Source: Candidatus Woesebacteria bacterium GW2011_GWC1_42_9
GTDB taxonomy: Bacteria; Patescibacteriota; Microgenomatia; UBA8517
Reading direction: 5' to 3'
NCBI GenBank assembly: GCA_000995185.1
Contig: LCET01000005.1
Coordinates: 84,277-148,276, forward strand
DNA: 64,000 nt
The notes under the pieces are model-generated. The model was given only the letters and a program-made list of their open reading frames with translations. It made no database searches and was not told where the DNA came from. The translations under genes and the position numbers were made by a program. Shown here piece by piece: positions 12,531 to 32,558 of the stretch (its first letter is position 1; the number at the start of each line of letters is the position of its first letter).

Positions 12531-12534
12531 TTAT

Positions 12535-12996: not shown

Positions 12997-12997
12997 T

Positions 12998-13294: not shown

Positions 13295-13325
13295 CATGAC
13301 GGTAGTAGTATACCAGCACTCTGCC

Positions 13326-14297: not shown

Positions 14298-14321
14298 AGT
14301 GGTATTTTAACAGGATGCTAA

Positions 14322-15439: not shown

Positions 15440-16039
15440 TCACCGCGTAACCACTAACAAAAAATGCGGATAAGGTAAAAAACTTTTTAGGTTTATGCGA
15501 GTTTTTACACCAAACCCCAACTCCGTAAGCATCCTCTTATATCCATCTCGGGAAAGAAAATGAAGGCCTTCGTATTTGGTAAAGGTAAACTTAAATAATC
15601 GAGTCATGATCGTTTCCTCGATTTTCAGGACTTTATAAATAAAGCCTGATCCGTTCCCATTTTCAACTACAATCAAACTGCCGTTTTTTTTCAAAAGCTT
15701 CCGGCATATCTCAAAAAATTTACCTTTCTCCCGGCGCGGGAAAAGGTACAAAACATCGATCACAATAATGCAATCAAATCTTACCTTCCTATTTATTAAA
15801 TCGGATAGCTCGCATACTTCAAATTTTAAATTTTTTAGATGGCTATATTTACGCGCATGCCGGATCTTTATCTCTGAAGGATCAATCCCGGTTACTTGCC
15901 TATCTAAAGATCTTTCCGCCAATATTTTCGAAAACAATCCATGGCCACAGCCAACGTCTAGTATCTCCCCCTTTGAGGGCACAAATTTTTCTATTTCACC
16001 AAAGGGGCAAATGAGTGGACGGACAAATTCATAAAACAT
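15440..16039 (-). CDS. Class I SAM-dependent methyltransferase
   Basis: Motif I ILDVGCGHGLFS, plus a later acidic loop. Confidence 0.75.
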   Translation of the reverse strand: MFYEFVRPLICPFGEIEKFVPSKGEILDVGCGHGLFSKILAERSLDRQVTGIDPSEIKIRHARKYSHLKNLKFEVCELSDLINRKVRFDCIIVIDVLYLFPRREKGKFFEICRKLLKKNGSLIVVENGNGSGFIYKVLKIEETIMTRLFKFTFTKYEGLHFLSRDGYKRMLTELGFGVKTRINLKSFLPYPHFLLVVTR

Positions 16040-16049
16040 AATTAATTTT

Positions 16050-17777
16050 CTACTTTTTTTCTAACAAATAAAACGCAGGCTCGCCTGATGGAAGAGTTAT
16101 CACTCTCACTAAATGGAGGCCCGCAGGTACTCTGCTTGGCTCGGAGATTAGATTTGGTGCAATTTCCCGTTTGGAAGCGATATAAAGAGTGTCTTCATCC
16201 ATCACGAGAGAAAGTTTGTCCATCCCGATTTTTCCCTCCACTTGTCCGAAATAAAATTTTCCAACCTTTTTTAAATCCCCGAAACCAGCGACATATCCTT
16301 CTCCAAAACCTCTCTGCCAAACATTGGGGTCATAAGGATAATATGAGGCCAAAAAAATGTACGGCCTCTCCTCCGCATTGGTAATCACAATTTTGTCGTA
16401 CTGATTTTCATATTCTTTAACTGCTTCGATTGCTTCTTTGTATCCTGCATACCAGCTCTTTTCTGAATACCACGGATACCGTACCCAATAGTTATACTGA
16501 TAAAAAAACAAACTTATTAACAAAAGCACGGCGTAACTAAGGATAAATATCTTTTTATAAAACCTATTTTTGATGAAATTTACAGTTTCTACTAATCCAA
16601 AAGAAATAAGAAAAATTAAAGGCGGCAAGATCAGTATTAATCTAGTTGCGTGACCTCCCCCTTCAATTGTCAAAGAAGACGGGACTGCGCCAAAGATCAC
16701 CCAAAATGAGATTAATGCCTTATTTTTTTTTGACTCAGCTCCTCCGTCCAATTTGCTTTTGAAAAAAAGAATTATCCCCAATACCAAAAAAATTGCGTCG
16801 AGTTTGTAAAACTGGCCAACACCAACTACAGAGTGCCTTGAACTTATGTCCCCTTTCAAAAATAAAAATTGCGTTGAAAAAGACTCTAAATAATTTGTTG
16901 ATATTTTTGAAGTCCAAACAACAAATTTATTATTAACTATTCTTGAAGCAATTTTTGGTACTATTCCACCGTTATAAGTATTTCTTACTTGGGCATCGCT
17001 TAAGCGAGCAAGGCTAATTTCGGAGATAGTACTCTGGTCGCCAAGCACGCTAATATTTTTAAACCGATACGCTCCTCCCCCAAACACAACAACATAGATT
17101 AAAGGTAATATTAAAACCAACAACACCAAAACTACCCTGATCAAATGTTTTCTGGGGAACTTCACCAAGTCTTTCGACCAGACAAATGCTAAAAATATAA
17201 TAAGCGCGGGGGCAAATAATTTAGCGGTGCTATATGTCCACGGGGCCAAGCCAAGTAATAATGCCGAGACCCACAGGAACTTGGGCTTTTTTATACTTTT
17301 CAAAAAAAAATAGATCGCGCCGAGGATAAGAAACAATAGTTCACTTACTTCAAAACCAGCGCGGCTATAGTGGATGTGCCACGGAGAAAGCGCCATCAAA
17401 AAGGCACTCGTTAAAGCCAATGTCTCAGATTTGTCAATTTCTTTAACCAAAAAATACAGCATTAATACCCCAAGGATTCCAAATATCGCGGCCGGCAACC
17501 GCACGCCGTAAGGGGTAATACCAAAGACTGCAACAGAGGGAACAGTCGAATAAATATATAAAGGGGCTCGGTACTCAACGTACGATTGAAAGTGCAGGGG
17601 CCAGGGATTCCCAAAATAATCCTTGCCAGTTTTAAGAATAGAATATGCTTGATAACCCACATCTAGCTCATCGGTAAAGAGTGAGACAGGGACTCGATCA
17701 AGCCTCCATAAACGAAGTAAAGATGCAAGTAATAAAATTACAATCAACAATTTTCTACTCTGCACAAAACTGGACAT
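16050..17777 (-). CDS. GT39/ArnT-like (PMT_2 family) membrane glycosyltransferase
   Basis: 575 aa with about 12 TMs. N-terminal DE-containing loop (FTDELD). Architecture of 4-amino-arabinose/mannosyl transferases. Confidence 0.65.
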   Translation of the reverse strand: MSSFVQSRKLLIVILLLASLLRLWRLDRVPVSLFTDELDVGYQAYSILKTGKDYFGNPWPLHFQSYVEYRAPLYIYSTVPSVAVFGITPYGVRLPAAIFGILGVLMLYFLVKEIDKSETLALTSAFLMALSPWHIHYSRAGFEVSELLFLILGAIYFFLKSIKKPKFLWVSALLLGLAPWTYSTAKLFAPALIIFLAFVWSKDLVKFPRKHLIRVVLVLLVLILPLIYVVVFGGGAYRFKNISVLGDQSTISEISLARLSDAQVRNTYNGGIVPKIASRIVNNKFVVWTSKISTNYLESFSTQFLFLKGDISSRHSVVGVGQFYKLDAIFLVLGIILFFKSKLDGGAESKKNKALISFWVIFGAVPSSLTIEGGGHATRLILILPPLIFLISFGLVETVNFIKNRFYKKIFILSYAVLLLISLFFYQYNYWVRYPWYSEKSWYAGYKEAIEAVKEYENQYDKIVITNAEERPYIFLASYYPYDPNVWQRGFGEGYVAGFGDLKKVGKFYFGQVEGKIGMDKLSLVMDEDTLYIASKREIAPNLISEPSRVPAGLHLVRVITLPSGEPAFYLLEKK

Positions 17778-17807
17778 AGGTCATTCTACTATACTCGCCT
17801 TATTAAA

Positions 17808-20534
17808 TTAATCTGTGGCCATGCTTGAACTGATACTTGCAAATTGAATAAAGATAAAAGCGAAAACAATTGCCATAACAACTGGTGCAAATTTAGCTAA
17901 ATAATCTTTCTTGCCAGGAACAAATCTCCTGAGGAGTAAGGAATTCCCAACAACCGAAATCGAAGAAAATGCCATCGCCAAACCCGCCAGCTCTGGCTTA
18001 AGAATCAACCCAAACCCTGCAAAGACTCTTGCGGCAACTGGAATGCCAATGACATTGTAGAAAAGCGCGAAAAACATGTTTTGCTTAATCTTTGACATTG
18101 TGGTGCGAGATAAATCTATCGCGCCGACAACATCTCGAAGGTCGTTTTTAATAATTACAATACCACCAGTTTCCATTGCCACATCAGTTCCGCTCCCCAT
18201 GGCTATCCCTAAATCCGCCTGAGCTAAAGCCGGGGCATCATTAATTCCATCTCCTACCATCGCCACTTTTTTCCCTTGTTCTTGCAACTTTCTAACCTCG
18301 TTTGCTTTATCTTCAGGGAGTACTTCAGCTAATACGTTTGTAACGCCAACTTGTGCAGCAATTGCCTGCGCAGTACGCTCATTGTCTCCTGTAATCATAT
18401 ATATTTGAATCCCGAGCTTAGTCAACTTTTCAATTGCTTCTTTTGTCGTGTCTTTAACAATATCAGCTACAGCAATCAACCCTAGTACTTCTTTTTTCGT
18501 GGCAAGTACCATCACTGTTTTCCCTTGGCCCTCAAGGGACTGAATCATATTCATCTGATTAAAAAGCGGTAACCCCAATGTGTCGCTTGCTAGTTTTGGC
18601 TTTCCAAAATAATACGTATTTCCATCCATCTGCCCTTCCACGCCAAATCCAGGGATTGCCTTAAAACCAATCACATCACTAAATGCTACGCCTTTTCCTG
18701 AAGCATATGCGCAAATTGCTTCCGCCAACGGATGCTCTGATTGCTTCTCCAGTGAGGCTGCAATTTCCAAAACAGCGCTGTTGCCAATAATATCCGTTAC
18801 TTCAGGTTTCCCCTTTGTAATCGTCCCCGTTTTATCAAACACAATCACATTAATCTTGTTTGCCTTTTCCAGAGGCTCTCCCCCTTTCACCAAAATCCCA
18901 TGTTCAGCTCCCTTTCCGGTCCCGACCATAATAGCGGTAGGCGTCGCAAGTCCTAAAGCACATGGACAAGCAATCACTATTACAGCTGTAAATGCCATCA
19001 GAGCAAAAGAGAGTGTTGCGCCAAATACAAAATACCAAGCGATAAAGGTCAAGACTGCTGTAACTATTACTGCGGGTACAAAATAAGCGGAAATCCGGTC
19101 CGCAATGGCCTGTATTGGAGCTTTTGATCCCTGGGCATCTTCGACTAGCTTTATTATCTGGGAAAGGGTAGTTTCTAAACCAACTCTTGTTGCAATAAAC
19201 TCAAAACTTCCAGTTTTATTTAATGTACTACCGATCACAATATCTCCTTCATTCTTCTCAACAGGCATGCTCTCTCCTGTTATCATTGATTCGTCGATCG
19301 AAGAAGAACCTTTGATAATTTTTCCATCCACCGGAACCTTTTCTCCGGGACGAACAATAACAACATCACCTTTCATCACATTCTCTAGGGGAATATCAAT
19401 CGTCACTCCATTTCTTATTATTCTTGCCGTTTTGGCTTGGAGCCCCATTAGTTTTCTTATTGACTCAGAAGTCCGGCCTTTAGCCTTTGCTTCCAACCAT
19501 TTTCCCAAAACAACAAAAGTAATTAAAAACGCAGCCGTTTCAAAATAGAGCTCAGGAATTTTGGCCCCCATAAGGCCAATTACGGAATAATTAATCGCGT
19601 AATAAGAAAAAAAATTAACAACACTATAAAAATATGCAACCGAAGTGCCAATCGCAATCAAGCTATCCATGTTGAATGTCCTCATGCGAAAGCCCGACAA
19701 AGCCCCTTTATAAAAACTAGCCCCCACAATAAACTGCACAGGTGTTGCCAAAATAAACGAAATAATTCCTACATAAGGAAGTAAAATCCCACCGAGAGGG
19801 ACACTAGAAAAGAAGTCAAAAAGCATGAAATATACCATCGGCGCACTAAAAGCAAAACTCCATAAAAATTTTCTAGACAAACCCTTAATCTGCGCCAACT
19901 GTTTCTCGGCATCTTCTTTGGTGTTTGTTGGATCTGAAACTACAGCTTTATATCCAGTTTTCTCAACGGCGTTAATTAAATCGCTCTCTTTAATTTTAAC
20001 CTGATCAAAAATCACTGTTGCTTTTTCGGCGGTGAAGTTTACTTTCGCCTCGCTTACTCCCGGAACTTTCTTCAAAGATTTCTCTATAATCCCCGCACAA
20101 GACGTACAGTGCATCCCATACAATAATAATGATGTTTTCTTCTCTCCTTCTTTATTCTCTATACCTCCTTCTTTAAGTTTTATTTCACCGTCAAACTCAA
20201 TTTCTCCCTTCTCGTTTTTTGTTATTTTTCCACTTATTCTTAAAGAGTCTTGCGCTCTAAAGATAATTTCTTGAAGTGGGCTTCTCCCATTACTATGCAA
20301 AACATTACCACTATTACTAACTATTGCTGTATAGCCTGCCTTCTTGATCGCATTTTTTATAACGTCTGTCGACAGACTTTTACTAGCCCGAAGACTACCC
20401 TTTCCTGTCTCGAAATCAACTTCTACATGCTCCACGCCATCAATTTCACCGATCTCATCGCGTATAAGCATCTCGCATGACTGACAATGCATTCCGTTAA
20501 CCTGAAACTTTATTACTCCCGCAGTTTCACTCAT
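17808..20534 (-). CDS. copA: Cu(I)-translocating P1B-type ATPase with two N-terminal HMA domains
   Basis: GMHCQSCE and [11 protein letters not shown] motifs, TM CPC ([12 protein letters not shown]), [13 protein letters not shown], and the YN...MxxSS Cu(I) signature in the last TMs. Confidence 0.9.
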
Positions 20535-20733
20535 TTACAATTTTATACAGGGTACCCGATAATACTTCATCTATGTCTTCGCTTGTGACATCCCACCCAG
20601 CAGTTACACAAACTGCTCCAGTTTTATAATTTACTTCCACAGAATCCACTCCGGGAATAGTGCCAATGCGTTTCTCAATTATTTTTTTACAAGCCGGACA
20701 ATGAGTTCCTTGAATTTTATAAACAAATGATTT
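20527..20733 (-). CDS. copZ: CopZ-like HMA copper chaperone
   Basis: [25 protein letters not shown]... Single HMA fold with a CxxC. Start taken at the internal Met. Confidence 0.8.
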
Positions 20734-20737
20734 CATA

Positions 20738-22549
20738 TTAGTTAACAGTAATGCTTCCTCGAGAAATTCCCATCGCACAAGTAATGTTATATGTACCGGT
20801 GCTACCTGGTGTAAATTCAAAGACAATCGTCTGCCCCTTAGTAAACACCTCAATTTTCTTGGTGAGACTTGGGATAGTCACACTACCCATACAGCCCTGA
20901 CCGTCATCCTTTGCCTCAATTTCAAACCGTACAGGTTGGTTAACTTTAACCGTGAATTTATTAGGAGAGATATCCCCGAGAGACGTATAAGTAGATTTCA
21001 ACACTTGAATGTTTCCTTGTGTGATGGTTTGACCAGCGGGTTGATTTGAATTCTGTGTGACTGCTGATTTAGCCCCGCATCCGCAGCCACCCCCATTTGC
21101 ACTGCACGACGAAGAAGCACTCAGCACCGTATTAGCAGCTAGAGTCGAAGGTGTAGCCACGTTTGAATTTTCATCGACCACATTAAATGAACCAGTATAC
21201 ATACCCATAGAACACGAGAAACGGATTGTGCCGGCTTGGGCGGGAGTAAATTCAAAGATGTTTTCGCCTAATTCCAGTCCTCTGCGAATACCTAATTGTT
21301 GCGATACGATGCTACTGGCGCATGAATAAATATCTTTTGAAGTAACAATCCATTTAACAGGAATGTCCTTCACAATCGTAAATTTATTTGGTGAATATCC
21401 AGATGAACTTTGTATCATCCGAACTTCTTGAACTCCATTGACAAGTTTGACATTAGGATCCTCTATGGCACTACTCGTAGAGGCGCTAATGGTAAATACT
21501 CCGAGTACTTTGGGGCTGATACCCAATAAATTTAAGCCATTTGAGACATTAAATAAAGCCAGCAAAATCACTACCACGCCAGCAGTTTTGAAAAATAGTC
21601 TTGCCCCCCGGCCCTTGACAACTGAAGTTAGTCCACCGACTCCAAGTAATCCCGGAGCAGTCCCAAGGGCAAAGACACCCATTGTTAAAGAACCTGAAAT
21701 GGGACTCCCGGTACTCATTGCATATAACTGCATTGCTTGTGTAAAGCCACAAGGTAAAAAGAAAGTCATTGCACCCATGACTACTGAATTTTTGTTACTA
21801 TATTCGCCGAAGGATTTCTTCTTAATCCCGAGCTTGCGGGATAAACTCTTAGGAAGAGTAAAAGATGCTTTTTTCAAAATAGGAAAGATGTCGATTAACT
21901 GTCCGCCAAGAAGCAGCATGACCAGCCCAACGGCAACAATCAGCATTCCCAAGACTGAAGTCGAAAGCTGAAATAATGAACCTGCAAAACCAATCAGTCC
22001 CCCAAGGGCAAAAAAGGATACGATACGTCCTAGATTAAAGAATAGATGGGGCTTAAACTTTTCCAAGGAACTGGCATAAGGGTTTTGAGCTGAGAAACGA
22101 GCGGAGGCGCCAAGCACAAGACCGCCAACTAGTGCCATGCATGTCGAAACTCCAGCGGTAAGGCCAACTAAGAAGACAATTGGCAAACTGCTAAAACTAC
22201 CAGAAATTGAGCTACTTAGGTTAAAAATTCCCAATGTCTTGGCAACTAAAAACAAAGCTGTAGCAATAAAAAAAGCAATTCCTAGATCGAGATAATCTCT
22301 ACGGTTACGGGAGAAAAAATGAATTTTCCCATCCTGGCCGATTCCATACCCTGCACTTTCTACCGCTTTTGCAACTGCACCTTCATCTAATTCACATTCA
22401 CAGTCAATGTTTGCGATGCCTGTTCGATGGTTAACAGAAACTTTTTTCACTCCCGGAACTTTCTTTAACTCATCCTCAATTAATATTTCACAAGACCGAC
22501 AGTGCATGCCCTTAATATGAATTTTTTGATTTTTCATGAATCTAAGCAT
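20738..22549 (-). CDS. HMA domain - DsbD_2/CcdA-like thiol membrane domain - two C-terminal cupredoxin-like repeats
   Basis: N-terminal GMHCRSCE. Then ~8 TMs with single Cys in helices (VSTCMALVGG, FFLPCGFTQAM). Then two ~100-aa repeats (Y/ISPNKFT... ending FSCSMGMYTGSFNVV and ITCAMGISRGSITV), separated by a Cys/Gly patch SSSCSANGGGCGCGAKS. Confidence 0.7.
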   Translation of the reverse strand: MLRFMKNQKIHIKGMHCRSCEILIEDELKKVPGVKKVSVNHRTGIANIDCECELDEGAVAKAVESAGYGIGQDGKIHFFSRNRRDYLDLGIAFFIATALFLVAKTLGIFNLSSSISGSFSSLPIVFLVGLTAGVSTCMALVGGLVLGASARFSAQNPYASSLEKFKPHLFFNLGRIVSFFALGGLIGFAGSLFQLSTSVLGMLIVAVGLVMLLLGGQLIDIFPILKKASFTLPKSLSRKLGIKKKSFGEYSNKNSVVMGAMTFFLPCGFTQAMQLYAMSTGSPISGSLTMGVFALGTAPGLLGVGGLTSVVKGRGARLFFKTAGVVVILLALFNVSNGLNLLGISPKVLGVFTISASTSSAIEDPNVKLVNGVQEVRMIQSSSGYSPNKFTIVKDIPVKWIVTSKDIYSCASSIVSQQLGIRRGLELGENIFEFTPAQAGTIRFSCSMGMYTGSFNVVDENSNVATPSTLAANTVLSASSSCSANGGGCGCGAKSAVTQNSNQPAGQTITQGNIQVLKSTYTSLGDISPNKFTVKVNQPVRFEIEAKDDGQGCMGSVTIPSLTKKIEVFTKGQTIVFEFTPGSTGTYNITCAMGISRGSITVN

Positions 22550-22587
22550 ACAAAATCACTCATTAAGATTTTATTAGGATCGCGGGG

Positions 22588-23259
22588 TCAATCTGTCCTT
22601 TCTATCACTCCATCTTTATATTCATAAACAAGCGGGTGGCCCAGAGGAAGATTTACGAAGGAAATTTTATCATCCCCAATGTTTTCTAAAAATTTAATAA
22701 CTGCTCGCAGAGTATTACCATGGCCGACAATGAGATTTGTTTCCCCGCGTTTTAACCGGGGGATGATCACTTTCTCAATATACGGGACAACTCTATCATA
22801 TACATCCTTCAGGCTTTCCCCATGAGGAGGTCTATCGAAAAAACCTCTTCTCCACTTAAGTACCTGCAATTTGCCATATATTTCCGCAACCTTTTTTTTG
22901 TTCATCCCTTGCAACGCCCCATAAGCTCGTTCATTTAGAGCTCTGTCCGTATACACATTAATAATTTTCTTGCTTAAATGAGGATTAGCATCATCAGGAA
23001 TATCGTATTTTTTATCACTTTGATGCTGAAAAACACCTATCTTATTTTGTTTAGACAGGATTACTGCCAAGGTTTCGTGTGCTCGTTTGAGATGAGAAGT
23101 AAAGATGGCATCATAGTCAAAATTTTTACAGTGCTTCGCAACTTTATGTGCTTCTCTAATACCCTTCTCCGACAGAGGTACATCTAGCCAACCGGTAAAT
23201 ATATCCAGCTCGTTAAATCTAGATTGACCATGCCTCACAATCACTAATATCCCTTTCAT
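22588..23259 (-). CDS. gpmA: 2,3-bisphosphoglycerate-dependent phosphoglycerate mutase
   Basis: RHGQSRFN phosphohistidine motif and LIVGHGNTLRAV. Confidence 0.85.
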   Translation of the reverse strand: MKGILVIVRHGQSRFNELDIFTGWLDVPLSEKGIREAHKVAKHCKNFDYDAIFTSHLKRAHETLAVILSKQNKIGVFQHQSDKKYDIPDDANPHLSKKIINVYTDRALNERAYGALQGMNKKKVAEIYGKLQVLKWRRGFFDRPPHGESLKDVYDRVVPYIEKVIIPRLKRGETNLIVGHGNTLRAVIKFLENIGDDKISFVNLPLGHPLVYEYKDGVIERTD

Positions 23260-25367
23260 ACAGAAACTAAGTCTTTTTCGGCTCTATTAAGTAAGATCGC
23301 ATTTGTCGCAACGATAATAGATGAAATACTCATGAGGAGAGCAGAAAACTCCGGCCGAAGCGTGATGCCAAAACTTGGGTACAGAACCCCTGCCGCAACT
23401 GGTATCGCTAGAAGATTGTAGACACTCGCCCACACCAGATTTTCCTTCATCTTTCGTACGGTTGCTTTTGAAAGTTTAATGGCTCTTAAAACGTCTGCCG
23501 GGTCAGACTTCATCAGTACTACTTTGGCAGTCTCAATTGCCACATCAGTTCCCGCACCAATCGCGATCCCGATATCAGCCTGCGCCAATGCCGGAGCATC
23601 ATTAACTCCGTCACCCACCATTGCAGTAAATTTACCCTCCTCTTGAAGTTTTTTGACGTATGAAGCTTTGTCTTCCGGCAGAACCTCAGAAAAAACCCTA
23701 TCAATATTGAGCTCTTTGCCAATGGCTTCAGCAGTTTTTTTATTATCACCAGTAATCATAGCCACCTCCAGCCCCAATGCTTTCATTTTGACGATAGCTT
23801 GCTTGGCATTCTCTTTGACTGGATCTAGCGCAGCCGCAACGCCAGCGATTTTATTATCAACCGCGAGTATCATGATTGTTTTGCCTTCCAAAAGCAGCCT
23901 GTCTATATCATTTTGTAGTGGAGAAATATCAACCTTCGAACTATCCATTAATTTCACAGTTCCGACAAGCACATGCCTGCCGTCGACAACTGCTTCAACA
24001 CCATGACCAGCCAGGTTTTTAAACTTCTCAACATTATTTGAAACAGAGATTTTTCTTCGTTTGGCTTCTTCTAAAACCGCCGAGCTTAAAGGATGAGAAG
24101 ACTTTTTTTCGGCCGCAGAATTAAGTTGAATAATTTGATCTTGAGTAAATCCATTAGCGGCAACTACATCGGTAATTCTAGGCTTACCTTCTGTGAGAGT
24201 TCCTGTCTTGTCCATTACTACTGCTTGTATTTTTGATACTTGCTCAAGAGTCGCAGCATCCTTAATAAGAATATTGTGTTTGGCTCCTAACCCAGTGCCT
24301 ACAGCAACAGCAGTAGGAGTAGCCAACCCTAACGCATCGGGGCAAGCTATGACCACTGTCGAGATGGCGAAGGTAAGCGCAAACAGGAGAGGTTGTCCTA
24401 GAACAAAAAACCAGACGACGAAGGTAAGTAATCCTCCACCAACAGCCACAACCACCAAATATCTGGCAAATCTGTCGGCGATTTTCTGTCCCGGAGCCTT
24501 GGAGTTCTGGGCAGTTTCTACCATTTTAACTATCTGGGCCAGTGCAGATTCTCCAGTAACAAGTGATTCATCAATGGCCGTTTCACCCTCAATGATTTCT
24601 CCATCAACCGGCACTTTATCACCAGGCTTGAGGATGAGTATGTCTCCAAGCTTCACTTCTGATGTAGATACCAAGGTCTCTTTCCCGTCCCTCCAAAGTC
24701 TTGCTTGTGGAGGAACGAGGTCAAACAACGCTTGAAGAGCATCGGTGGTTCCACGTCTTGACTTCATTTCCATCCAATGACCAAACAGGACAAAGGTCGT
24801 TAACATGGCTGCGGCTTCATAGAATGATTCCTGACTACCCAGAAGTGTTAACACCACACTAAATACATAGGCCGTGGTAATACCCACCGCAATCAGAACC
24901 GCCATATTCAGTGTCTTGGCTTGCAGGGCTTTATAGGTTGAGTATAGAAAGATCCAGCCTGAATAAAAATAAACAGGTGTAGCCAACAAAAACATGATCC
25001 AACTCGCGGGAATGGGTTCGGGGAGCCTCAAACCCAAGATGTTTGTTCCCAAAGGTGAATAAACAATAATCGGTAGGGTGAGTATGAGGGCAACAAGAAA
25101 TTTGTTGCGGATATCTTCTTCCATGAGTTTTGCCATCTCGCGCCCCGCCAGGCCCGCATGTTCCATCCCCATGGCCATAGTCATACTCATCTTAAATTTT
25201 TCCCAGAAAGACCAGCCTTCGCCAAGGCTTCGGCCGGCAAGCATTTCTTTATGACCCACTTCTTTTTCAACAGGAACCAAAGCCATGCCGCATTTAGGAC
25301 ACTCCCCAGGATTTTTCTCTTGCACTTCGGGGTGCATCGGACATGTATAATATATTGTTTCTTTCAT
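23256..25367 (-). CDS. P1B-type heavy-metal ATPase with N-terminal CPxH...CPxCG metal-binding domain, Met-rich segment and a CPD (not CPC) TM motif
   Basis: YYTCPMHPEV...PGECPKCGMAL, then MSMTMAMGMEH, IACPDALGLATP, DKTGTLT, GDGVNDAP, YN and MSISS in the last TMs. Confidence 0.85.
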   Translation of the reverse strand: MKETIYYTCPMHPEVQEKNPGECPKCGMALVPVEKEVGHKEMLAGRSLGEGWSFWEKFKMSMTMAMGMEHAGLAGREMAKLMEEDIRNKFLVALILTLPIIVYSPLGTNILGLRLPEPIPASWIMFLLATPVYFYSGWIFLYSTYKALQAKTLNMAVLIAVGITTAYVFSVVLTLLGSQESFYEAAAMLTTFVLFGHWMEMKSRRGTTDALQALFDLVPPQARLWRDGKETLVSTSEVKLGDILILKPGDKVPVDGEIIEGETAIDESLVTGESALAQIVKMVETAQNSKAPGQKIADRFARYLVVVAVGGGLLTFVVWFFVLGQPLLFALTFAISTVVIACPDALGLATPTAVAVGTGLGAKHNILIKDAATLEQVSKIQAVVMDKTGTLTEGKPRITDVVAANGFTQDQIIQLNSAAEKKSSHPLSSAVLEEAKRRKISVSNNVEKFKNLAGHGVEAVVDGRHVLVGTVKLMDSSKVDISPLQNDIDRLLLEGKTIMILAVDNKIAGVAAALDPVKENAKQAIVKMKALGLEVAMITGDNKKTAEAIGKELNIDRVFSEVLPEDKASYVKKLQEEGKFTAMVGDGVNDAPALAQADIGIAIGAGTDVAIETAKVVLMKSDPADVLRAIKLSKATVRKMKENLVWASVYNLLAIPVAAGVLYPSFGITLRPEFSALLMSISSIIVATNAILLNRAEKDLVSV

Positions 25368-25450
25368 ATATTTTATTGTAATACTTTTTTAGTAACCACA
25401 CATACAGTTGAAATTACCGCCGTCAGTTACTACAATGAGTAATAACTTTT

Positions 25451-25861
25451 GTGCTCTACACGCAGAATAAAAATTTACTTATTGCTCTTATAATTGGAGC
25501 AGTTGTTGTTGCCGGATTGAGTTGGAAAGTGCTTTCCAGTTCTAACTCTGGCGCGAGCGCGGCCAGCGAGGCAGTAACATTGACTACTGATCCTAACCCA
25601 TTACGAACTGGGCCGGCGACTCTTATTATTGATGTAAAAGACAAAGCTGGCGGATCAATTAATGATGCAACCGTATCGTTCGATCTCAATATGACCACTA
25701 TGGACATGGGGAGTCAGCGGGGTAACGCTATTTTTCAAGGTAACGGCAGATATATAGCCTCTGGAAGAATAAGTATGCGTGGCCCCTGGAAAGTGACAAT
25801 AAAAGTCACCATGCCGGACGGCGTTGTGGTCAATAAAGATTTTACTGTGAATGTTCCTTAA
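25451..25861 (+). CDS. YtkA/FixH-like exported beta-sandwich protein with Met cluster
   Basis: GTG start, N-terminal TM, ...DLNMTTMDMGSQ...MRGPWKVTIKV pattern typical of YtkA-like proteins that are often linked to copper. Confidence 0.55.
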   Translation: MLYTQNKNLLIALIIGAVVVAGLSWKVLSSSNSGASAASEAVTLTTDPNPLRTGPATLIIDVKDKAGGSINDATVSFDLNMTTMDMGSQRGNAIFQGNGRYIASGRISMRGPWKVTIKVTMPDGVVVNKDFTVNVP

Positions 25862-25910
25862 TGTTTGTGGCCGCCACTTTTCATCATCCAAAGGTGCATT
25901 AACGGGCAAG

Positions 25911-26003
25911 TCAGTAGCGGAAAATAATCACCGCTACAACTGCTAGAGCCATCAATCCTAGGCAAATACCAAACCATTTTAAGAGTGAATCATAATTATC
26001 CAT
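25911..26003 (-). CDS. Candidate 30-aa single-TM peptide (not in ORF track)
   Basis: GGAGGTG SD sits 5 nt before the ATG. Translation is MDNYDSLLKWFGICLGLMALAVVAVIIFRY. It lies 40 nt downstream of the histidine kinase on the same strand. Confidence 0.3.
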   Translation of the reverse strand: MDNYDSLLKWFGICLGLMALAVVAVIIFRY

Positions 26004-26042
26004 ATTCACCTCCATTATAAGAAAAGAAGGATTAGGAAATCA

Positions 26043-27461
26043 TTAGGAGGACATGGTGGATTTCTGAAATAGAGGCAGGATAATGGTTACTGAGGTTCCA
26101 CTTTCGACTTTACTTTTGATTTTGATCTCTCCACGATGAGCTTTAATAATTCCTTGAGAGATAGCGAGCCCTAATCCCGAGCCTAGGGTTTTTGTTGCCT
26201 TGGACCCTCTATAAAAACGCTCAAAGATATGTCCAAGCTCTTTTTTAGGAATACCAATTCCAGTATCTTTAACTTCCAGTCTCGCGTTTCCTTTCTCTTT
26301 CCGAAGCGATATAGTGACAGACCCGCCTCCAGGTGTATATTTGATCGCGTTATCAACAATATTGAGTACTGCGCGCGATATTTTATCTTCAGCACCACCA
26401 ACGACAATCCCTGGATCAATTTCACTTTCCAAAACAATGCGCTTTCGAGATGCTAGTTTGATAACAATTTCTTGAAGTTCAATCAGAGCATTTGAAAGGT
26501 CAAAATAGCCGTCGACCAACTTAGTATTTTCAGCTCCAGTCCAAGCTAAATCAAGGATATTTTTTATTATTGCCGATAGCTGATTGATATCTATAAGTGT
26601 CTCGTCAAGTGCTCTTTTATACTCCCGATTTGTCCTTTTTTTAGACATAGTTACTTCTACCCCCCCCTTAAGCGTCGCTACGGGTGTCTTTAATTCATGC
26701 GCGACATCGCCAATAAATTGTCTTTCGCGAATAAAAGCATCATTTAGATGGTCCAATAAACTGTTAAATGTTTGCGATAACTCCTCAATCTCATCTCCAG
26801 TATTAGGATTTGGGACACGCTCTTTTAGATTCTCTGCACTAATCTTCTTGAGTTGTTTTGACACTTGAGAGATAGGGCTCAATGCCTTACGAGCCAACAA
26901 AAAACCTCCAGCAACGATGATCGCAAGCAACCCAACGTACACTGAAACGAGGGTTAAAGTGAGAGTATTCAAAGATTTTTGGATAACATCCATGGGTTGA
27001 CCCATTAAGACAATCGCTTGCCGCTGATCACTGCGCTCCGCTGGAAAAATCCCGAACCGCAAAGGAGTTGTTCCAATATTTCGATTCACAAATGTTGGTC
27101 TAATTATATTTGCCGATTTTTCAAGCAAGTCGATGATATCAGACTCGTTTATCCCAAGATCATGCGAGCTATAAAGTATATCCCCATACGGATCGCCAAT
27201 AATCAAAAGCATGCCTGGCATTTCACTAAATTGTTGTGCAAATGTTTGACTACTATTGATGAATGACTGATTCATCACTGCATCTTCTTGAGTGATTATT
27301 TCAACTATTTTCTCATTGTGAGCAGTAATTGCCGAGTCGGTATGAGAGAGAAGAGATCGCTGTGTAAGGAGATAAAAGGCAATGAAAACCAATGCCATGG
27401 CGACGGAAAAAACGAGGGTACACCACATTGTTAATCTAAACCTAATGCTTTTAGTGTTCAT
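26043..27461 (-). CDS. Sensor histidine kinase (two TMs, periplasmic sensor, HAMP, HisKA, HATPase_c)
   Basis: H-box VAHELKTPVATL, plus N, G1 and G2 boxes. Confidence 0.9.
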   Translation of the reverse strand: MNTKSIRFRLTMWCTLVFSVAMALVFIAFYLLTQRSLLSHTDSAITAHNEKIVEIITQEDAVMNQSFINSSQTFAQQFSEMPGMLLIIGDPYGDILYSSHDLGINESDIIDLLEKSANIIRPTFVNRNIGTTPLRFGIFPAERSDQRQAIVLMGQPMDVIQKSLNTLTLTLVSVYVGLLAIIVAGGFLLARKALSPISQVSKQLKKISAENLKERVPNPNTGDEIEELSQTFNSLLDHLNDAFIRERQFIGDVAHELKTPVATLKGGVEVTMSKKRTNREYKRALDETLIDINQLSAIIKNILDLAWTGAENTKLVDGYFDLSNALIELQEIVIKLASRKRIVLESEIDPGIVVGGAEDKISRAVLNIVDNAIKYTPGGGSVTISLRKEKGNARLEVKDTGIGIPKKELGHIFERFYRGSKATKTLGSGLGLAISQGIIKAHRGEIKIKSKVESGTSVTIILPLFQKSTMSS

Positions 27462-27464
27462 ACT

Positions 27465-28133
27465 CTAGTCGCCGACTTTATAACCTACACCATGAATTGT
27501 CTTAATCAGATTCTTTTTAGAATCTGTGCCAATTTTCTTTCTTAAAGCTACTATAAAGACGTCCACAACATTGCTCATTCCATCAAAATTATAGTCCCAT
27601 ACGTGTTCAGTGATCATCGTTCTCGTCACCACCTCTCCTTTGTGTCTAAGCAATAGTTCTAAAACTGCAAATTCTTTAGGTGTGAGATTAATGATTTTTC
27701 CATCTCGCTTTACAACATGCTTAAGCGGATCTAGTTCTATACCATTGAGTGTAAGAACCGGAGAGATTTCTTGGTGGCTTCTTCTAATAAGCGCATGCAC
27801 CCGAGAGCGAAACTCAACAAAAGAGAATGGCTTGGTAACGTAATCATCAGCACCGCTATCAAGCCCGGAAACCTTATCTTCAGTTGTTGATTTAGCTGTA
27901 AGCATTAGGATTGGGGTTTTAATGTTTTTCTTCCGAAGCTCACGGCAAAGCTCTAAACCACTCATTTTAGGAAGCATAATGTCCAAGACAATAAGATCAT
28001 ATTGTTCACTTTCTGCTAAGTATTGTCCCTCTTCGCCATCAAAAGCCTGGTCAACTGCAAATCCATCTTCAACTAATCCCTTTTTAATAATATTCGAAAG
28101 CCGGTGTTCATCCTCAACAATCAAGACCCTCAT
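27465..28133 (-). CDS. OmpR-family response regulator
   Basis: Receiver LIVLDIMLP with the conserved Asp, and a C-terminal winged helix. Confidence 0.9.
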   Translation of the reverse strand: MRVLIVEDEHRLSNIIKKGLVEDGFAVDQAFDGEEGQYLAESEQYDLIVLDIMLPKMSGLELCRELRKKNIKTPILMLTAKSTTEDKVSGLDSGADDYVTKPFSFVEFRSRVHALIRRSHQEISPVLTLNGIELDPLKHVVKRDGKIINLTPKEFAVLELLLRHKGEVVTRTMITEHVWDYNFDGMSNVVDVFIVALRKKIGTDSKKNLIKTIHGVGYKVGD

Positions 28134-28189
28134 GGGCCTATTATATTAATAAATTATTAAAAAATCATTAAGACTTATATTTTTATTAA

Positions 28190-28459
28190 TTATCTCTTGC
28201 TGAAATAATTGTAGGACACCGCGAAAGCGTACCCGATGACCCAGGCAAAAATTACCGATGATGCCAAACCCACAGTAAATGTCCCAAGCGATAAATTCCA
28301 AGATCCAAGCCGGGTTAGTTCAATTCCATGCAACCATGACTGGCCAACCGAAAACATCAGATCAGGAAACAAACTAACTAGAATGCGACAAGCAACATAG
28401 ACAACTCCCGTCGTAGCGGCCAAAGCATTTGCTGTGGCGGTAGGGTTATTCTTCATCAT
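28190..28459 (-). CDS. Small hypothetical membrane protein (89 aa, 3 TM)
   Basis: Hydrophobic. No motif recognised. Confidence 0.4.
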   Translation of the reverse strand: MMKNNPTATANALAATTGVVYVACRILVSLFPDLMFSVGQSWLHGIELTRLGSWNLSLGTFTVGLASSVIFAWVIGYAFAVSYNYFSKR

Positions 28460-28498
28460 TTCTCACCTCCTTCTTAGATACTTTATATTTATATCACT

Positions 28499-29434
28499 TT
28501 ATACTCCACAACCACCACTTTTTTTGGGGGGCTGTTGAATAAGTCCTTTATCAGTTAACCATTGTTTAACCCTTTGCCAGCCTGAGGCAGATGAGTAATC
28601 CTTGCTCAATAAAATTTGAGCATCGATATCTTTGAAAGATTTGCCCTCTTTATTAGAAAAATAGAGTGCTATGTCATAATAGTTTCCTGGAAACCAAAAT
28701 GCATTAAAATATTTCCCGACTTCATACATTTGACTTTCGGTGGCGTCATTGCCGGCCATTAATTGAAGTACTCCTAAAAGGGCCATGCCATGGTTGCAAT
28801 CAGGGAAAGCGGTAGAATTATTGCAACAGGGTCTGAAAATATTTGAGGCGACCAGATAAACTCGCGCTTCCTGCTCTTTGGTTAGAGGAATAAGTGTGGA
28901 TTTTGAGTAATAAGTCATTGCGTCGCCCTTACCCAAGGTCCAACCGCCAGTTGAAGCAAAATTTCCGGCACCCTTTTTACCTCCATATTTCATCATGTCA
29001 CCGTCATCCAAAATCTGTGACTTGTTGGCCAAACCTACTGCCCAAAAAAAGTTTAGTAAAAAATAAGAATTATCACGGGTGATTTTAATTTTTTCGTTTG
29101 ATTCTTTGAGAAGTACCCCCTCTTGTTCTAATGTGAGGGGTTGACTCGATTTTTCATAAATAGCTTTAAACTTCTCCGGGTCAATAACCCCCATCGCTAT
29201 CATTTTAGGACCTAAGTCGCCATATGTAGCGCCAATCTCAAAACCATCCACTGGATTAATTTCGTTAAACAAAGTGTCTTTACTAGTTGCAGTCGATATG
29301 GTGGAAGTGTCCTCAGCTGTCTTGAATCTGCTCACTCTAAGTTTCATGACTTGTGGAATATAAAGTACAACTACCAATATTAAATTAGCAACTATACTAA
29401 TTATAAGGACTAACAACAGTTTATTTTTCTTCAT
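28499..29434 (-). CDS. Hypothetical Cys-rich exported protein
   Basis: N-terminal TM anchor, motif RPCCNNSTAFPDCNHG, C-terminal ...KKSGGCGV. Confidence 0.5.
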   Translation of the reverse strand: MKKNKLLLVLIISIVANLILVVVLYIPQVMKLRVSRFKTAEDTSTISTATSKDTLFNEINPVDGFEIGATYGDLGPKMIAMGVIDPEKFKAIYEKSSQPLTLEQEGVLLKESNEKIKITRDNSYFLLNFFWAVGLANKSQILDDGDMMKYGGKKGAGNFASTGGWTLGKGDAMTYYSKSTLIPLTKEQEARVYLVASNIFRPCCNNSTAFPDCNHGMALLGVLQLMAGNDATESQMYEVGKYFNAFWFPGNYYDIALYFSNKEGKSFKDIDAQILLSKDYSSASGWQRVKQWLTDKGLIQQPPKKSGGCGV

Positions 29435-30245
29435 GGCCTTTGTATTTCAACAACTTATAAAAAGTAAATAAAACAATCCCAAAAACAAACAGATCTACTA
29501 TTGGGTTTTGGAAATACTTAGCAATTTCAAAAACGATCAGGCGGATTTTTTGGCTATATAGCTCCATTTGATTCATCTGAATTTTTCCCTGAAAGTTATA
29601 CACAGCAATTAAAATCCCTGTAAAAAAGAATATTCCGGCGCCCAAATAATTCAGCACGTTATAAATCTTATGCCTATTAGGTCCAGCAATTTTTGCCGTC
29701 GCTTTTTCATAAAATATCGACATAACAAAAAGAGGCATCACGATGCCGACTACATAGGCCAAGGAAACAATTAATGCTTGGAAGAGGGAGGGCGATAAAG
29801 ATGTAAGCGTTACTGCAACAAACAATACTGGTGCACAGCAGGCTGAGGTCAAGCCAGACATAAGCCCCAGTCCAAACACGCTCGCGGCATCAACCTTCTT
29901 GCCCTGAAGGCTAGTTACATGGAATATTTGCGGCAAATGGAAGATTGGCTTAAGCGTCATAACCCCCATTAGAATCATGACTAACGCACCAAAGTAATAA
30001 ATAGCTTCGTGATAAGCATCGAAGAAAAAAATGACAGATCGAACACCTAAGGCTATCGGCACCAATACAAAAGCCAGGCCTAAGGCAAAAATAAAAGTAT
30101 AGTACATGACCCTTTTTTGCTCTCTAAAAATTGTCCCAAGATAAGAAGGAAATAGAAACGTAATGCAACACGGCGCAAATAAAGCCATTACTCCGGCCAA
30201 AAAAGAAGCGGTTAACGATATTCCGAATAGAAAATTTGAATCCAT
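29421..30245 (-). CDS. CcdA/DsbD-like thiol-disulfide membrane transporter
   Basis: Two repeats with TM Cys doublets: LFAPCCITFLFPSYL and LTSACCAPVLFV. Confidence 0.55.
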   Translation of the reverse strand: MDSNFLFGISLTASFLAGVMALFAPCCITFLFPSYLGTIFREQKRVMYYTFIFALGLAFVLVPIALGVRSVIFFFDAYHEAIYYFGALVMILMGVMTLKPIFHLPQIFHVTSLQGKKVDAASVFGLGLMSGLTSACCAPVLFVAVTLTSLSPSLFQALIVSLAYVVGIVMPLFVMSIFYEKATAKIAGPNRHKIYNVLNYLGAGIFFFTGILIAVYNFQGKIQMNQMELYSQKIRLIVFEIAKYFQNPIVDLFVFGIVLFTFYKLLKYKGHEEK

Positions 30246-30247
30246 AG

Positions 30248-30712
30248 TTATTTTACTTTTGCTTTAATACTAAAAACTAATTTCTGATTCTCCGGATCAT
30301 TGGTAATTACATATACTTCTCTCTCAACTAGTCCATACACAGGCATAGTAGCTGGTCGATAAGTAAGTCGGACTGTAGCGGTATCTCCTGGTGCAATTTC
30401 AGTCACAAACCCACTCTGCGAGTGCATACTGTACTCTTTGCTCGTTTCGCCTTTGTAAATAATTTGCCCGGTTGTACAACCACAACTTGAGTTAACGTTG
30501 AGAATTTGTAGAGGTTTCGTTCCAATATTTTTTAGAGTGTAATCTTGCTGTTTTACATCTGATACTTTAATTTCACCTATGTCAAAAAAGATCTGTGATG
30601 TTTCCGCCCTCGGACGATCAGAATCTGGTACTGAAATGTTTCTAGTAAAAGCCAATCCAGCGATGGCTCCAAATAAAAGAATAAGACTAATAATAACCGC
30701 CTTAAATGACAT
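30248..30712 (-). CDS. DUF1573-domain protein (CGC motif)
   Basis: Signal anchor then ...LKNIGTKPLQILNVNSSCGCTTGQ...IAPGDTATV..., the DUF1573 consensus. Confidence 0.75.
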   Translation of the reverse strand: MSFKAVIISLILLFGAIAGLAFTRNISVPDSDRPRAETSQIFFDIGEIKVSDVKQQDYTLKNIGTKPLQILNVNSSCGCTTGQIIYKGETSKEYSMHSQSGFVTEIAPGDTATVRLTYRPATMPVYGLVEREVYVITNDPENQKLVFSIKAKVK

Positions 30713-30740
30713 CTGATAACCAATCTTACAATTGAAGGAG

Positions 30741-31472
30741 TTAAGATTTTATTAAGATCTGTAAATACATCACAAGAGCTCCCAAAATCACCAAAAAATA
30801 TTTTCTAATACCTGGAATCCTGCTATCCTCCTCCACCTGCGGCAAAAAGTCGCTTGCACCCAAATACAAAAATATCCCCGCCGAAATTGCCAAAAATATC
30901 CCTATCTTGTCTGGGGTATCTTTAAAATAAAAATAAACCAGGAGCGCTCCCGGAAAAGTAGCCAAAGCTGAGAATAAATTAATTAGAAATGTTCTTTGTT
31001 TTGTATACCCTGCTTTGATCAATATCCCAAAATCACCTATTTCGTGAGGTGTCTCATGTAAAAAAGTCGCAAGAGCAACCACTAATCCAAATTTAGGCTC
31101 AATCAAGTAGCTTGAGGCAATGGCGATCCCATCGATGACATTGTGGATCGTGTCCCCAACGATCACTAGAGGGATTGCCGATTCTAAATCGTTCCTCCTC
31201 CCCTCATGATGGTGTAAATGACAAAAAAACTGCTCAAACAAAAAAGAAGCAATAAATGAAACTAAAACGACCGTAAAGGCAATGTCCCCTGCCAGCTCAC
31301 TCGCCTCAGGTATCAAATTAATAATCGAAACAGATAAAAGCACCCCTGCCGCAAAAGGAACCGCGTTATGGCTTAGTGCCCTCGCCCAAGAGTTTTTGAC
31401 CAAAAAAAACACTCCGCCAATCAGCCCTGCAATACTCCCAAGCGCCGTGAGTAACAGTATTTCCACTAACAT
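30741..31472 (-). CDS. ZIP-family divalent metal transporter (ZupT-like)
   Basis: HNVIDGIAIASS and HETPHEIGDFG metal-binding TM motifs. Confidence 0.85.
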   Translation of the reverse strand: MLVEILLLTALGSIAGLIGGVFFLVKNSWARALSHNAVPFAAGVLLSVSIINLIPEASELAGDIAFTVVLVSFIASFLFEQFFCHLHHHEGRRNDLESAIPLVIVGDTIHNVIDGIAIASSYLIEPKFGLVVALATFLHETPHEIGDFGILIKAGYTKQRTFLINLFSALATFPGALLVYFYFKDTPDKIGIFLAISAGIFLYLGASDFLPQVEEDSRIPGIRKYFLVILGALVMYLQILIKS

Positions 31473-31502
31473 AATATTTAAATATTAACATACTTATGTT
31501 AA
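31473..31502. promoter_or_regulatory. Two adjacent perfect palindromes (AATATTTAAATATT and TTAACATA-CT-TATGTTAA) abutting the ZIP start codon
   Basis: 14-nt and 18-nt inverted repeats at 31473-31486 and 31485-31502, in the divergent region between ZIP and the 31520 ORF. Confidence 0.45.
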
Positions 31503-31519
31503 CCTTTTTGTGAACAAAA

Positions 31520-31840
31520 ATGGCCCAGCCAAAATACAAAGAGTATGTAGAAAAGATGCTTACTGCAAACACTGAGCTTTTTGCCGCCTTCAGAAAAATC
31601 CATGATCGATATGTCCTTAACCCAGAAAAATATCAGGAGGAATTTAATGAGGCTGGACGCGAAGTGATGAGCGTTATAAACGACTTTGAGGATCGATTAT
31701 GTTCCCAGAGTGAGCGGGGGGGCTACGGAAGCTTTACTACTAAGCTTGCAGAAAAATTTAGAGCAGAGATAAAAAAGCATTTTAGCGAGATTGATAAAGT
31801 GGGTATCGTAGTCTTCAAAGTTCCAAAAATTAATCTCTAG
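31520..31840 (+). CDS. Hypothetical protein
   Basis: 106 aa, charged/helical, weak SD. Confidence 0.4.
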   Translation: MAQPKYKEYVEKMLTANTELFAAFRKIHDRYVLNPEKYQEEFNEAGREVMSVINDFEDRLCSQSERGGYGSFTTKLAEKFRAEIKKHFSEIDKVGIVVFKVPKINL

Positions 31841-31913
31841 AGTCCCCAAAAAATTGACTTTTTTGGCATAAATTGTTACTATAGGCCATCGACAATTAAC
31901 AGGAGATATTTTC

Positions 31914-32105
31914 ATGCCGATTGAAAATATTATGTTCGCGCTCATTATCGTTTTTTTGGTCATGCTCAGCCTGAGCGTCATTTTCGAGAACCGTTCAAAG
32001 GCGTGCCCGCCTATGATCACTCCCTACAAGGAAGATCTCCCCCGTACCCACTATGAACACGGCGAGCGAGCGGCCAGGCGCAAAAGACGACGGGTGAAAG
32101 CATAA
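31914..32105 (+). CDS. Hypothetical small membrane protein with basic tail
   Basis: 63 aa, one TM, C-terminal RRKRRRVKA. Confidence 0.3.
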   Translation: MPIENIMFALIIVFLVMLSLSVIFENRSKACPPMITPYKEDLPRTHYEHGERAARRKRRRVKA

Positions 32106-32150
32106 TTATTTTTGGAGGGTGAAGCCACCTTTGCCCTCCTTAGGTCTTTA

Positions 32151-32558
32151 CTAAAAGCTCACTTCAAAATCCAAAAGTGGAATATTTAGAGCGTCCTCGC
32201 GAACACGGGTTTCATCAAACTTCTTTTCAAGCTCTTCAAGTGCCTTTCCAATCGCCTGCACTTCCGGATCGCTTGCATATTGGGACAGCTCCCCCTCTTC
32301 CAGCCCGTCTCCACTCTCCTCTGTAGTCTCAGGTGAAGGTGTTGGCACAACAGTAGCCGGCTCACCATTGTTCGCTACCATGCTTGCCACAACTGCCAAT
32401 ACTAATAATGCCATCAAAATTCCCACAATAATCATGATCAATCTAGCTCTGCTAAATCTCCGCTTCTCCGGCGGCGTTTCCACTGGCACCGGCACTTGCC
32501 CCTGTACCTGTACCTGTTCCTGAACTTGAGTTTGAACCTCTTGTTTATCTTCTTGCAT
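32151..32558 (-). CDS. Hypothetical membrane-anchored acidic protein
   Basis: Q/V-rich N-terminus, TM, acidic C-terminus. Confidence 0.4.
   Translation of the reverse strand: MQEDKQEVQTQVQEQVQVQGQVPVPVETPPEKRRFSRARLIMIIVGILMALLVLAVVASMVANNGEPATVVPTPSPETTEESGDGLEEGELSQYASDPEVQAIGKALEELEKKFDETRVREDALNIPLLDFEVSF

Follow-up and report, generated by a model that had tools for sequence, protein, structure and literature searches.

A minus-strand gene in a 64,000-nucleotide stretch of Candidatus Woesebacteria bacterium GW2011_GWC1_42_9 (contig LCET01000005.1, positions 84,277 to 148,276; hereafter the window) encodes a P1B-type ATPase in which the metal-binding motif of the transport helix M4 reads Cys-Pro-Asp (CPD) in place of CPC or CPH. 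The CPD motif is genuine and highly conserved, being neither an error nor a one-off. With moderate confidence, we consider that the protein is best explained overall, from its sequence and context, as a member of a widespread CopB-like (formerly P1B-3) branch of copper ATPases with an Asp after the M4 proline, which would export Cu(I); this particular copy, if a deletion found in it is real, would probably be inactive or badly impaired.

Pfam matched an HMBD, an E1-E2_ATPase domain and a Hydrolase (HAD) domain in the 703-aa protein, the E1-E2_ATPase match being broken into two stretches. Among the NCBIfam models, TIGR01525 (heavy-metal P-type ATPases) scored 534 bits against a cutoff of 346, and TIGR01511 (copper-translocating P-type ATPases) 513 bits against a cutoff of 397; the protein annotated for Candidatus Woesebacteria GW2011_GWC1 (P0001) is identical. 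The sequence was checked for every motif listed in an earlier reading made from the letters alone (the sequence-only reading), and the CPD motif, the HMBD, the Met cluster, YN and MSISS were all present. The CPD motif lies in the M4 stretch IACPDALGLATP (residues 340-351), an xPx motif with an invariant Pro, in which the D344 codon GAT occupies 24336..24338, and further catalytic motifs are SSHP (423-426) and GDGVNDAP (585-592).

The CPD motif was found in 120/120 of the best database homologues (74-92% identity, mostly Patescibacteria/Microgenomates), where it reads [IV]VIACPDALGLATP. When representatives of 50%-identity clusters were searched exhaustively, the top four matches were all CPD, and the best 150 included seven CPD and seven CPH sequences, nearly all others being CPC. 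By scanning a collection with one genome per species with a degenerate DNA pattern for CPDA-L-[GA]-L-ATP, the motif was detected in at least 120 species, and all 120 of the stretches listed translate into an ATPase open reading frame (ORF) with the motif. The matches listed fall in Actinomycetota, Alpha-, Beta- and Gammaproteobacteria (Pseudomonadota), Chloroflexota, Patescibacteria, Gemmatimonadota, Bacteroidota, Deinococcota, Armatimonadota, Myxococcota and others, and cultured strains among them belong to Ralstonia, Xanthobacter, Bradyrhizobium, Mesorhizobium, Roseovarius, Streptomyces, Nocardia and Mycolicibacterium, with Roseovarius mucosus DSM 17069, Ralstonia holmesii LMG 32967 and Mycolicibacterium chlorophenolicum DSM 43826 as examples. 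As for the suggestion that CPD variants might already be a catalogued subgroup with a known substrate, the first half holds, for the motif has been catalogued in Rhizobiales (Cubillas et al. 2017, PMC5552934), and the second does not, no substrate having been determined there. A full-text literature search, with most subscription-journal papers outside its reach, returned neither biochemistry of a CPD pump nor a further mention of the motif. Bradyrhizobium (B.) liaoningense CueA was considered as a characterised CPD pump and rejected, its motif being CPC.

The position of the CPD pumps within the P1B family was analysed in neighbour-joining (NJ) trees of ~600 well-aligned core columns, built from sequences picked for similarity to the query, whose rooting and internal branching order need better analysis. 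In the first tree, CPD and CPH sequences formed a clade separate from CPC in 191/200 replicates; after 74 complete genome-derived CPD sequences had been added, the clade was recovered in 98/100, with 132 CPC sequences outside. The expectation that CPD marks lineages distinct from the CPC pumps of CopA type is thereby borne out. The stronger proposal of the sequence-only reading, a distinct CPD clade or subfamily, is not: CPH alone was monophyletic in 99/100 replicates and CPD alone in just 2/100, by which CPD as a single clade was ruled out, and the CPD pumps form a clade only together with CPH. Within it, type A CPD pumps (Actinomycetota, Proteobacteria), most of which carry GYN plus MSGSS or MSGST, were monophyletic in 98/100 replicates, and type B CPD pumps (I/VYN plus MS[AILV]SS; Patescibacteria, Chloroflexota, Bacteroidota, Deinococcota), to which the window protein belongs, were grouped weakly, in 39/100. 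A type B CPD pump of 696 aa with IYN and MSISS was also seen in an uncultured member of the Sphaerobacteraceae (locus L026, match at 2556-2584); Sphaerobacter is reportedly the genus whose CPH CopB served to show Cu(I) specificity.

The CPD+CPH clade is matched by the column statistics. Seven residues, H197, M201, L304, A308, G312, M640 and A654, occur in at least 86% of both CPD and CPH sequences and in at most 8%, mostly 0-3%, of CPC sequences; H197 is present in 100% of CPD and CPH and in 0 of 132 CPC sequences, and M201 in 100%, 86% and 3% of the CPD, CPH and CPC groups, respectively. The third motif residue itself is D, H and C at 100% in these groups, and the window protein is without the CPC-specific M3 residues F, V and A. 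Because clade and column statistics coincide, the window protein is classed on sequence grounds as a CopB-like pump with Asp in place of His. Around the entry Glu, the CPD/CPH clade reads GHWMEM, and CPC pumps read G-[KQ]-x-L-E-[AL]; GHWMEM, or His197 within it, may be useful as a diagnostic of the CopB-like clade, and His197 may act as an extra metal ligand at the entry.

Metal pathway residues were mapped by alignment to Legionella pneumophila CopA (LpCopA; 3RFU, E = 3e-169), with roles taken from PMC9433437 and the established CopA literature. Retained were the entry Met (M155, LpCopA M148), the acidic pair at the entry (E200 and D298, LpCopA E205 and D337), the exit Glu (E184, LpCopA E189), the first Cys of the M4 motif (C342, LpCopA C382), and the site residues of M5 (Y650 and N651, LpCopA Y688 and N689) and M6 (M679 and S683, LpCopA M717 and S721), so that the sole change among the mapped positions is that of the second Cys, C384, to D344. 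A role of CopA E205 in the entry region has been described (PMC9433437), and in the E1 state of Archaeoglobus (A.) fulgidus CopA, Cu(I) is bound by both CPC cysteines together with the entry Met (PMC9433437); D344 therefore replaces a direct ligand. The premise of the sequence-only reading that CPH pumps handle Cu(II) is outdated: as set out in a review (PMC7558416, citing Purohit 2018), later work showed that the CPH (P1B-3) pumps transport Cu(I), and they have been united with the Cu(I) group.

Because the neighbours are copper genes and the clade signature residues are present, the most likely function, as judged from homology and context, is Cu(I) export of the kind carried out by the CopB partner of CopA/CopB pairs. 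The way out of the cytoplasm would be the one usual for P1B pumps: Cu(I) would be captured at the MB'/M1 Met (M155), close to E200 and D298, and then bound at the M4/M5/M6 site by C342, Y650/N651 and M679/S683, with D344 as a stand-in for the second Cys ligand. Phosphorylation of D386 and dephosphorylation dependent on TGES would drive its release past E184. In the cytosol, metal binding or regulation would fall to the HMBD and to the Met-rich stretch of the N-terminus.

A feature overlooked by the sequence-only reading sets this copy apart from its relatives. Compared with the neighbouring CopA and with every homologue, 33 residues of the actuator (A) domain are gone immediately after TGES; the missing consensus, LPVAKxxGDxVIGGSINTSGSVxFKATKxGxDT, corresponds to LpCopA I281-T313. 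When the DNA was aligned to L001, the contig encoding the intact 736-aa protein P0002 (96% identical to the window protein), the gap was exactly 99 bp, with just 2 nt (CT) of microhomology at its ends. The gap occurs in 0/119 other close homologues and is thus unique among the 120 sequences, a complete A domain being found in all homologues and not in the window copy. In AlphaFold2 models of the window protein and P0002, run with the same 25-sequence alignment, the A-domain block formed eight strands with a predicted local distance difference test (pLDDT) score of 61-86 (mostly >75) in P0002, and two strands with a pLDDT of 34-67 in the window protein, a comparison that is suggestive only, as both models are poor overall (mean pLDDT 65.9 and 65.4). 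The models were used for this comparison alone and are not usable for metal-site geometry, the membrane helices being of low confidence. If the deletion is real, the copy bearing it is probably inactive or badly impaired, in which case the intact neighbouring CopA would carry copper export. Unique substitutions numbered three in the window copy and five in P0002; from this lack of excess it follows that the lesion, if real, is recent. Because of the deletion, the window copy is a poor representative of the CPD subfamily.

The deletion junction coincides exactly with one end of a mosaic tract of ~590 bp. Over 6.3 kb, the window and L001 are 93-100% identical, mostly >96%, with the exception of this tract, where identity falls to 68-88%; likewise, identity to the P0002 protein is 88.3% within the tract and 99.6% elsewhere. 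A donor was sought in L122, L124 and L126, none of which exceeded 86% identity to the window tract, and the tract of L001 itself is 94% identical to L126 in one sub-window; either genome could be the recombinant. Deletion and tract together represent either a real recombination event that was imprecisely resolved, or a local error of assembly or curation at a place where strains vary. The latter, under which the real gene would be intact with 736 aa like P0002, we hold to be a tentative possibility that deserves serious consideration: the junction falls exactly at the boundary where near-identical genomes diverge, the 703-aa sequence is on record from one contig only, and no decay was seen elsewhere in the gene. 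Against it stand the microhomology of just 2 nt, on which a k-mer-graph assembler would not be expected to join the ends, the exact preservation of the frame across the gap, and the collinearity of the surrounding 6 kb with L001.

It is unlikely, in our judgement, that the CPD pumps are a functionally distinct subgroup in which the carboxylate in M4 redirects selectivity towards Cu(II) or another harder divalent metal, or adds proton counter-transport. The Asp is invariant in at least 200 sequences from many phyla and is therefore under selection, and D344 is at a position that we take to be occupied, in Ca2+ and Na+/K+ pumps, by the cation-binding Glu of the PEGL motif, which would favour such a subgroup. 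The same can be said of the CPD pump often adjoining a CPC CopA, as in the window and in L126, a hint of non-redundant roles; of the less Cu-specific C-H-H ligands in some CsoR-family neighbours; and of the ArsR-type regulators and the Cation_efflux gene near the pump in L124/L125. However, all other transport-site and pathway residues are of the Cu(I) type, a motif check of the window protein found neither the ZntA-type M6 Asp nor HEGxT, the neighbourhood is dominated by copper proteins, and the sister CPH pumps, formerly regarded as Cu(II) pumps, move Cu(I) (PMC7558416). With the other Cu(I) pathway residues kept and the context copper, nothing pointed to the changed metal or direction that the sequence-only reading had raised. 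Little credence is likewise given to the evolutionary form of this idea, in which the CPD pumps, present in at least 120 species of about ten phyla, are a distinct P1B subgroup with another ion (Cu(II) or another divalent metal) or another coupling, and the CPH CopB would have arisen from CPD as the older state.

We consider it very improbable that the protein with the deletion still pumps, or that it has been recruited to another task, for example to bind or sense metal without turnover. The reading frame and TGES are kept, unique substitutions are not in excess, and the 4-bp overlap with the downstream gene is preserved; but the lost block is almost invariant in homologues and contains several core A-domain strands, as indicated by the LpCopA I281-T313 alignment and the P0002 prediction, the A domain is no longer predicted to fold by AlphaFold2, and the deletion was found in no other sequence. 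A base-calling error turning Cys (TGY) into Asp, which the sequence-only reading had named as a way to be wrong, has practically no chance of being correct: nothing was found in its favour, at least two base changes separate GAT from TGY, and CPD recurs both in all 120 independent homologues, from many assemblies, and in at least 120 genomes, cultured isolates included.

Several points weigh against assigning the window protein to the CopB-like Cu(I) exporters with a defect in this copy. It carries VYN and MSISS, not the GYN and MSxST of CopB; the grouping of its immediate lineage, type B, is weak; and the trees are NJ only, from query-similar sequences. The substrate of CPD pumps would follow from homology and context, and the CsoR-family neighbours mix C-H-C and C-H-H types and do not indicate Cu(I) alone. 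Carboxylates are unusual as ligands of Cu(I), and an altered specificity or coupling is possible. As for the defect, the low overall quality of both structure models, the lack of excess substitutions and hence of any sign of long-term decay, and the position of the deletion beside a strain-variable tract, where metagenome assemblies may go wrong, all count on the same side.

Features of the ATPase gene and its neighbourhood, with positions in the window.
Feature	Position	Strand	Evidence
P1B-type ATPase gene, putatively CopB-like, with CPD motif, 703 aa	23256..25367	-	ORF listing, Pfam, NCBIfam
N-terminal HMBD, zinc-ribbon-like metal-binding, CPMH...CPKC, residues 6-33	25269..25352	-	Pfam PF19335, E = 1.2e-13
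Met-rich segment WEKFKMSMTMAMGMEH, residues 55-70, directly before first membrane helix	25158..25205	-	
Mosaic tract, ~590 bp, identity to L001 down to 68-88%	24547..25140	-	sliding-window identity
GHWMEM in M2, residues 196-201; E200 = entry-region Glu, flanked by H197 and M201	24765..24782	-	alignment to 3RFU
TGES, residues 271-274	24546..24557	-	sequence motif
In-frame 99-bp deletion junction right after TGES	between 24546 and 24545 (TGES + junction 24545..24557)	-	BLASTP gap, protein and DNA alignments
CPD motif C342-P343-D344 in transport helix M4, codons tgc ccc gat	24336..24344	-	read directly
DKTGT phosphorylation motif, residues 386-390	24198..24212	-	invariant in alignment
M5 motif NLVWASVYNLLAIP, residues 643-656, fits NX6YNX4P; VYN, not CopB's GYN	23400..23441	-	
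M6 motif PEFSALLMSISSIIVATN, residues 672-689, with MSISS at 679-683; fits MxxSS	23301..23354	-	
Histidine-phosphatase-family (phosphoglycerate-mutase-like) gene, start overlaps ATPase stop by 4 bp	22588..23259	-	Pfam His_Phos_1
HMA - DsbD_2 membrane domain - cupredoxin fusion, 603 aa, two cupredoxin-like domains	20738..22549	-	Pfam
CopZ-like single-HMA protein, 69 aa	20527..20736	-	Pfam HMA, E = 1.4e-12
Canonical CopA-type pump: CPC, two HMA domains, A domain intact	17808..20534	-	Pfam, NCBIfam, BLASTP
YtkA-like membrane-anchored protein, divergent from ATPase	25451..25861	+	Pfam PF13115, E = 2.7e-9
CusS-like histidine kinase: HAMP, HisKA, HATPase_c	26043..27461	-	domain matches; CusS sensor-domain match weak
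Putative OmpR-type response regulator	27465..28133	-	reading of ORF translation alone; adjoins kinase

In the N-terminal region, the HMBD motif YTCPMHPEVQEKNPGECPKCGMAL spans residues 7-30, and the HMBD aligns with LpCopA residues 36-67; the domain is not peculiar to the window protein, since the CPC pump LpCopA has one too. Pfam gave no match to an HMA (GMxCxxC) domain in the window protein, which has the HMBD only; HMA domains are not found in all CopA pumps. Four His residues precede the A domain (~residue 216), H12, H39, H70 and H197, two of which fall in the stretch that links the HMBD to the first membrane helix. The Met-rich segment is almost invariant among close homologues; these have His/Met-rich linkers at the N-terminus, where the window protein has the Met-rich stretch instead, and distant CPD pumps carry Met/His/Asp-rich stretches at the same position. 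Helices were modelled by AlphaFold2 at residues 73-102, 121-149, 155-175, 183-214, 292-322, 327-340, 623-665 and 672-702, a pattern compatible with eight membrane helices (MA, MB, M1-M6), with low confidence in the membrane part. The sequence-only reading had placed the motifs but mixed two numbering schemes: CPx belongs to M4, which is transmembrane helix (TM) 6 of 8, and YN and MxxSS to M5 and M6, which are TM7 and TM8.

The genomic context of the ATPase is copper. The phosphatase, HMA-DsbD_2-cupredoxin, CopZ-like and CopA genes lie downstream of it in the same orientation, and a two-component system (26043..28133, minus strand) lies upstream. The clustering of the pump with the CopZ-like, CopA and HMA-DsbD_2-cupredoxin genes resembles operons pairing CopA with CopB. 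Because of the 4-bp overlap between the ATPase stop and the phosphatase start, the two genes are probably in one operon; the overlap is the same in L001 and was not seen in the more distant relatives examined. The YtkA-like protein was ruled out as a conserved partner, being present only in L001 among 121 loci. In close relatives, the order is CPD pump, DsbD/cupredoxin, HMA and CopA, plus a repressor of the Penicillinase_R family (BlaI/CopY-type), a family that we take to include CopY, and in L126 a gene of the same size stands at the position of the 69-aa CopZ-like gene. The fusion gene recurs beside CPD pumps in L001 (4454-6265), L126 (5278-7098), L127 and L049, with weaker matches in L033 and L076, and its product could have an extracytoplasmic copper-handling or redox function.

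In other relatives, YHS-domain proteins stand on both sides of the CPD pump. These are small, as in L122 (1941-2162 and 6643-6840) and L124 (2701-2931 and 6068-6265); the upstream YHS gene overlaps the start codon of the pump in L124 and L125, and a 285-aa gene lies between the two in L122 and L123. No YHS gene was found in the window. Around the distant CPD loci, multicopper oxidases (10 loci), CsoR-family repressors (11 loci), DUF2933 proteins (10 loci) and ICMT/PEMT-like methyltransferases (10 loci) were recurrent; as neighbour clustering in high-GC loci was noisy, owing to spurious overlapping ORFs, only Pfam-confirmed clusters were used. The CsoR-family neighbours were rejected as a metal indicator, since their mix of C-H-C and C-H-H types does not discriminate. 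The ICMT/PEMT-like membrane methyltransferase, absent from the window, stands beside CPD pumps in L122 (1-591), L124 (651-1334) and L126 (1713-2408) as well as in the ten distant loci (for example, L113, 3062-3874), and a bPH_2 protein often comes after it in Patescibacteria.

Beyond the two-component system, the window encodes, on the minus strand, a DUF5676 two-helix membrane protein (28190..28459) and a 311-aa Cys-rich protein with CCNNSTAFPDCNHG that ends in GGCGV and has no Pfam match (28499..29434). Both recur beside CPD pumps in the Patescibacteria loci L043, L060, L076, L117, L122 and L124, and they may be an unrecognised part of the metal gene cluster. The cluster extends further, at 29421..31472 (minus strand), where the genes encode a 274-aa protein that Pfam does not match, an Ig-like DUF1573 protein and a ZIP-family metal transporter. 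Nearly all 2-kb bins of the window (1..64000) have a negative GC skew, and between 10 and 36 kb all Pfam-matched ORFs of at least 110 aa are on the minus strand, bar the YtkA-like gene, which fits a single replication arm.

On these grounds, the window protein would be a new member, in a different sublineage, of a CPD kind that is catalogued and biochemically uncharacterised. What is added here is the breadth of the CPD motif, its strongly supported union with CopB together with signature residues near the entry Glu, and the defect in this copy. Classification of P1B ATPases leans largely on the three-residue M4 motif, and a large, phylum-spanning group with an acidic residue, close to CopB, offers a defined target for asking how copper binding and release depend on whether the third residue is Cys, His or Asp; CPD pumps could also serve to probe the functional uniformity of the merged P1B-1/P1B-3 copper group. 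In this genome, a CopZ-like/CopA system would have a CopB-like second pump at its side, whose copy here, otherwise an ordinary member of a copper gene cluster, may be defective or a product of mis-assembly.

Among the known pumps, the CopA type (P1B-1, CPC) provides the best solved-structure matches, L. pneumophila CopA (3RFU, E = 3e-169) and A. fulgidus CopA (7R0G, 1.9e-165). The window protein fits its NX6YNX4P and MxxSS patterns, keeps its entry and exit residues and, like LpCopA, has an N-terminal HMBD; it differs in having CPD for CPC, in having no HMA domain and in falling outside the CPC group in the trees, and the CopA of the same window is 41% identical to it. A second known group is cluster VIc, the rhizobial CPD subtype (Cubillas 2017, PMC5552934), with which it has in common the CPD motif, YN(X)4P, a His-poor N-terminus and placement beside CPH pumps. 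However, the three proteins of that cluster (Xanthobacter, Nitrobacter, Bradyrhizobium) carry MSGSS and match the type A GYN/MSGSS clade (98/100), whereas the window protein, with MSISS, lies outside that clade, in the I/VYN plus MSxSS lineages. With the CopB type (P1B-3, CPH; for example, the CopB proteins of A. fulgidus, Sphaerobacter thermophilus and Enterococcus hirae) it shares the clade (98/100), the seven signature residues, an M6 that starts with MS and the lack of an HMA CxxC domain; a frequent location beside a CPC CopA is a further likeness, and most homologues have a His/Met-rich N-terminal stretch. It departs from CopB in having Asp, not His, after the M4 proline, in the VYN/IYN and MSxSS of its lineage where CopB has GYN (NX5GYNX4P) and MSxST, and in an N-terminus with few His and an HMBD.

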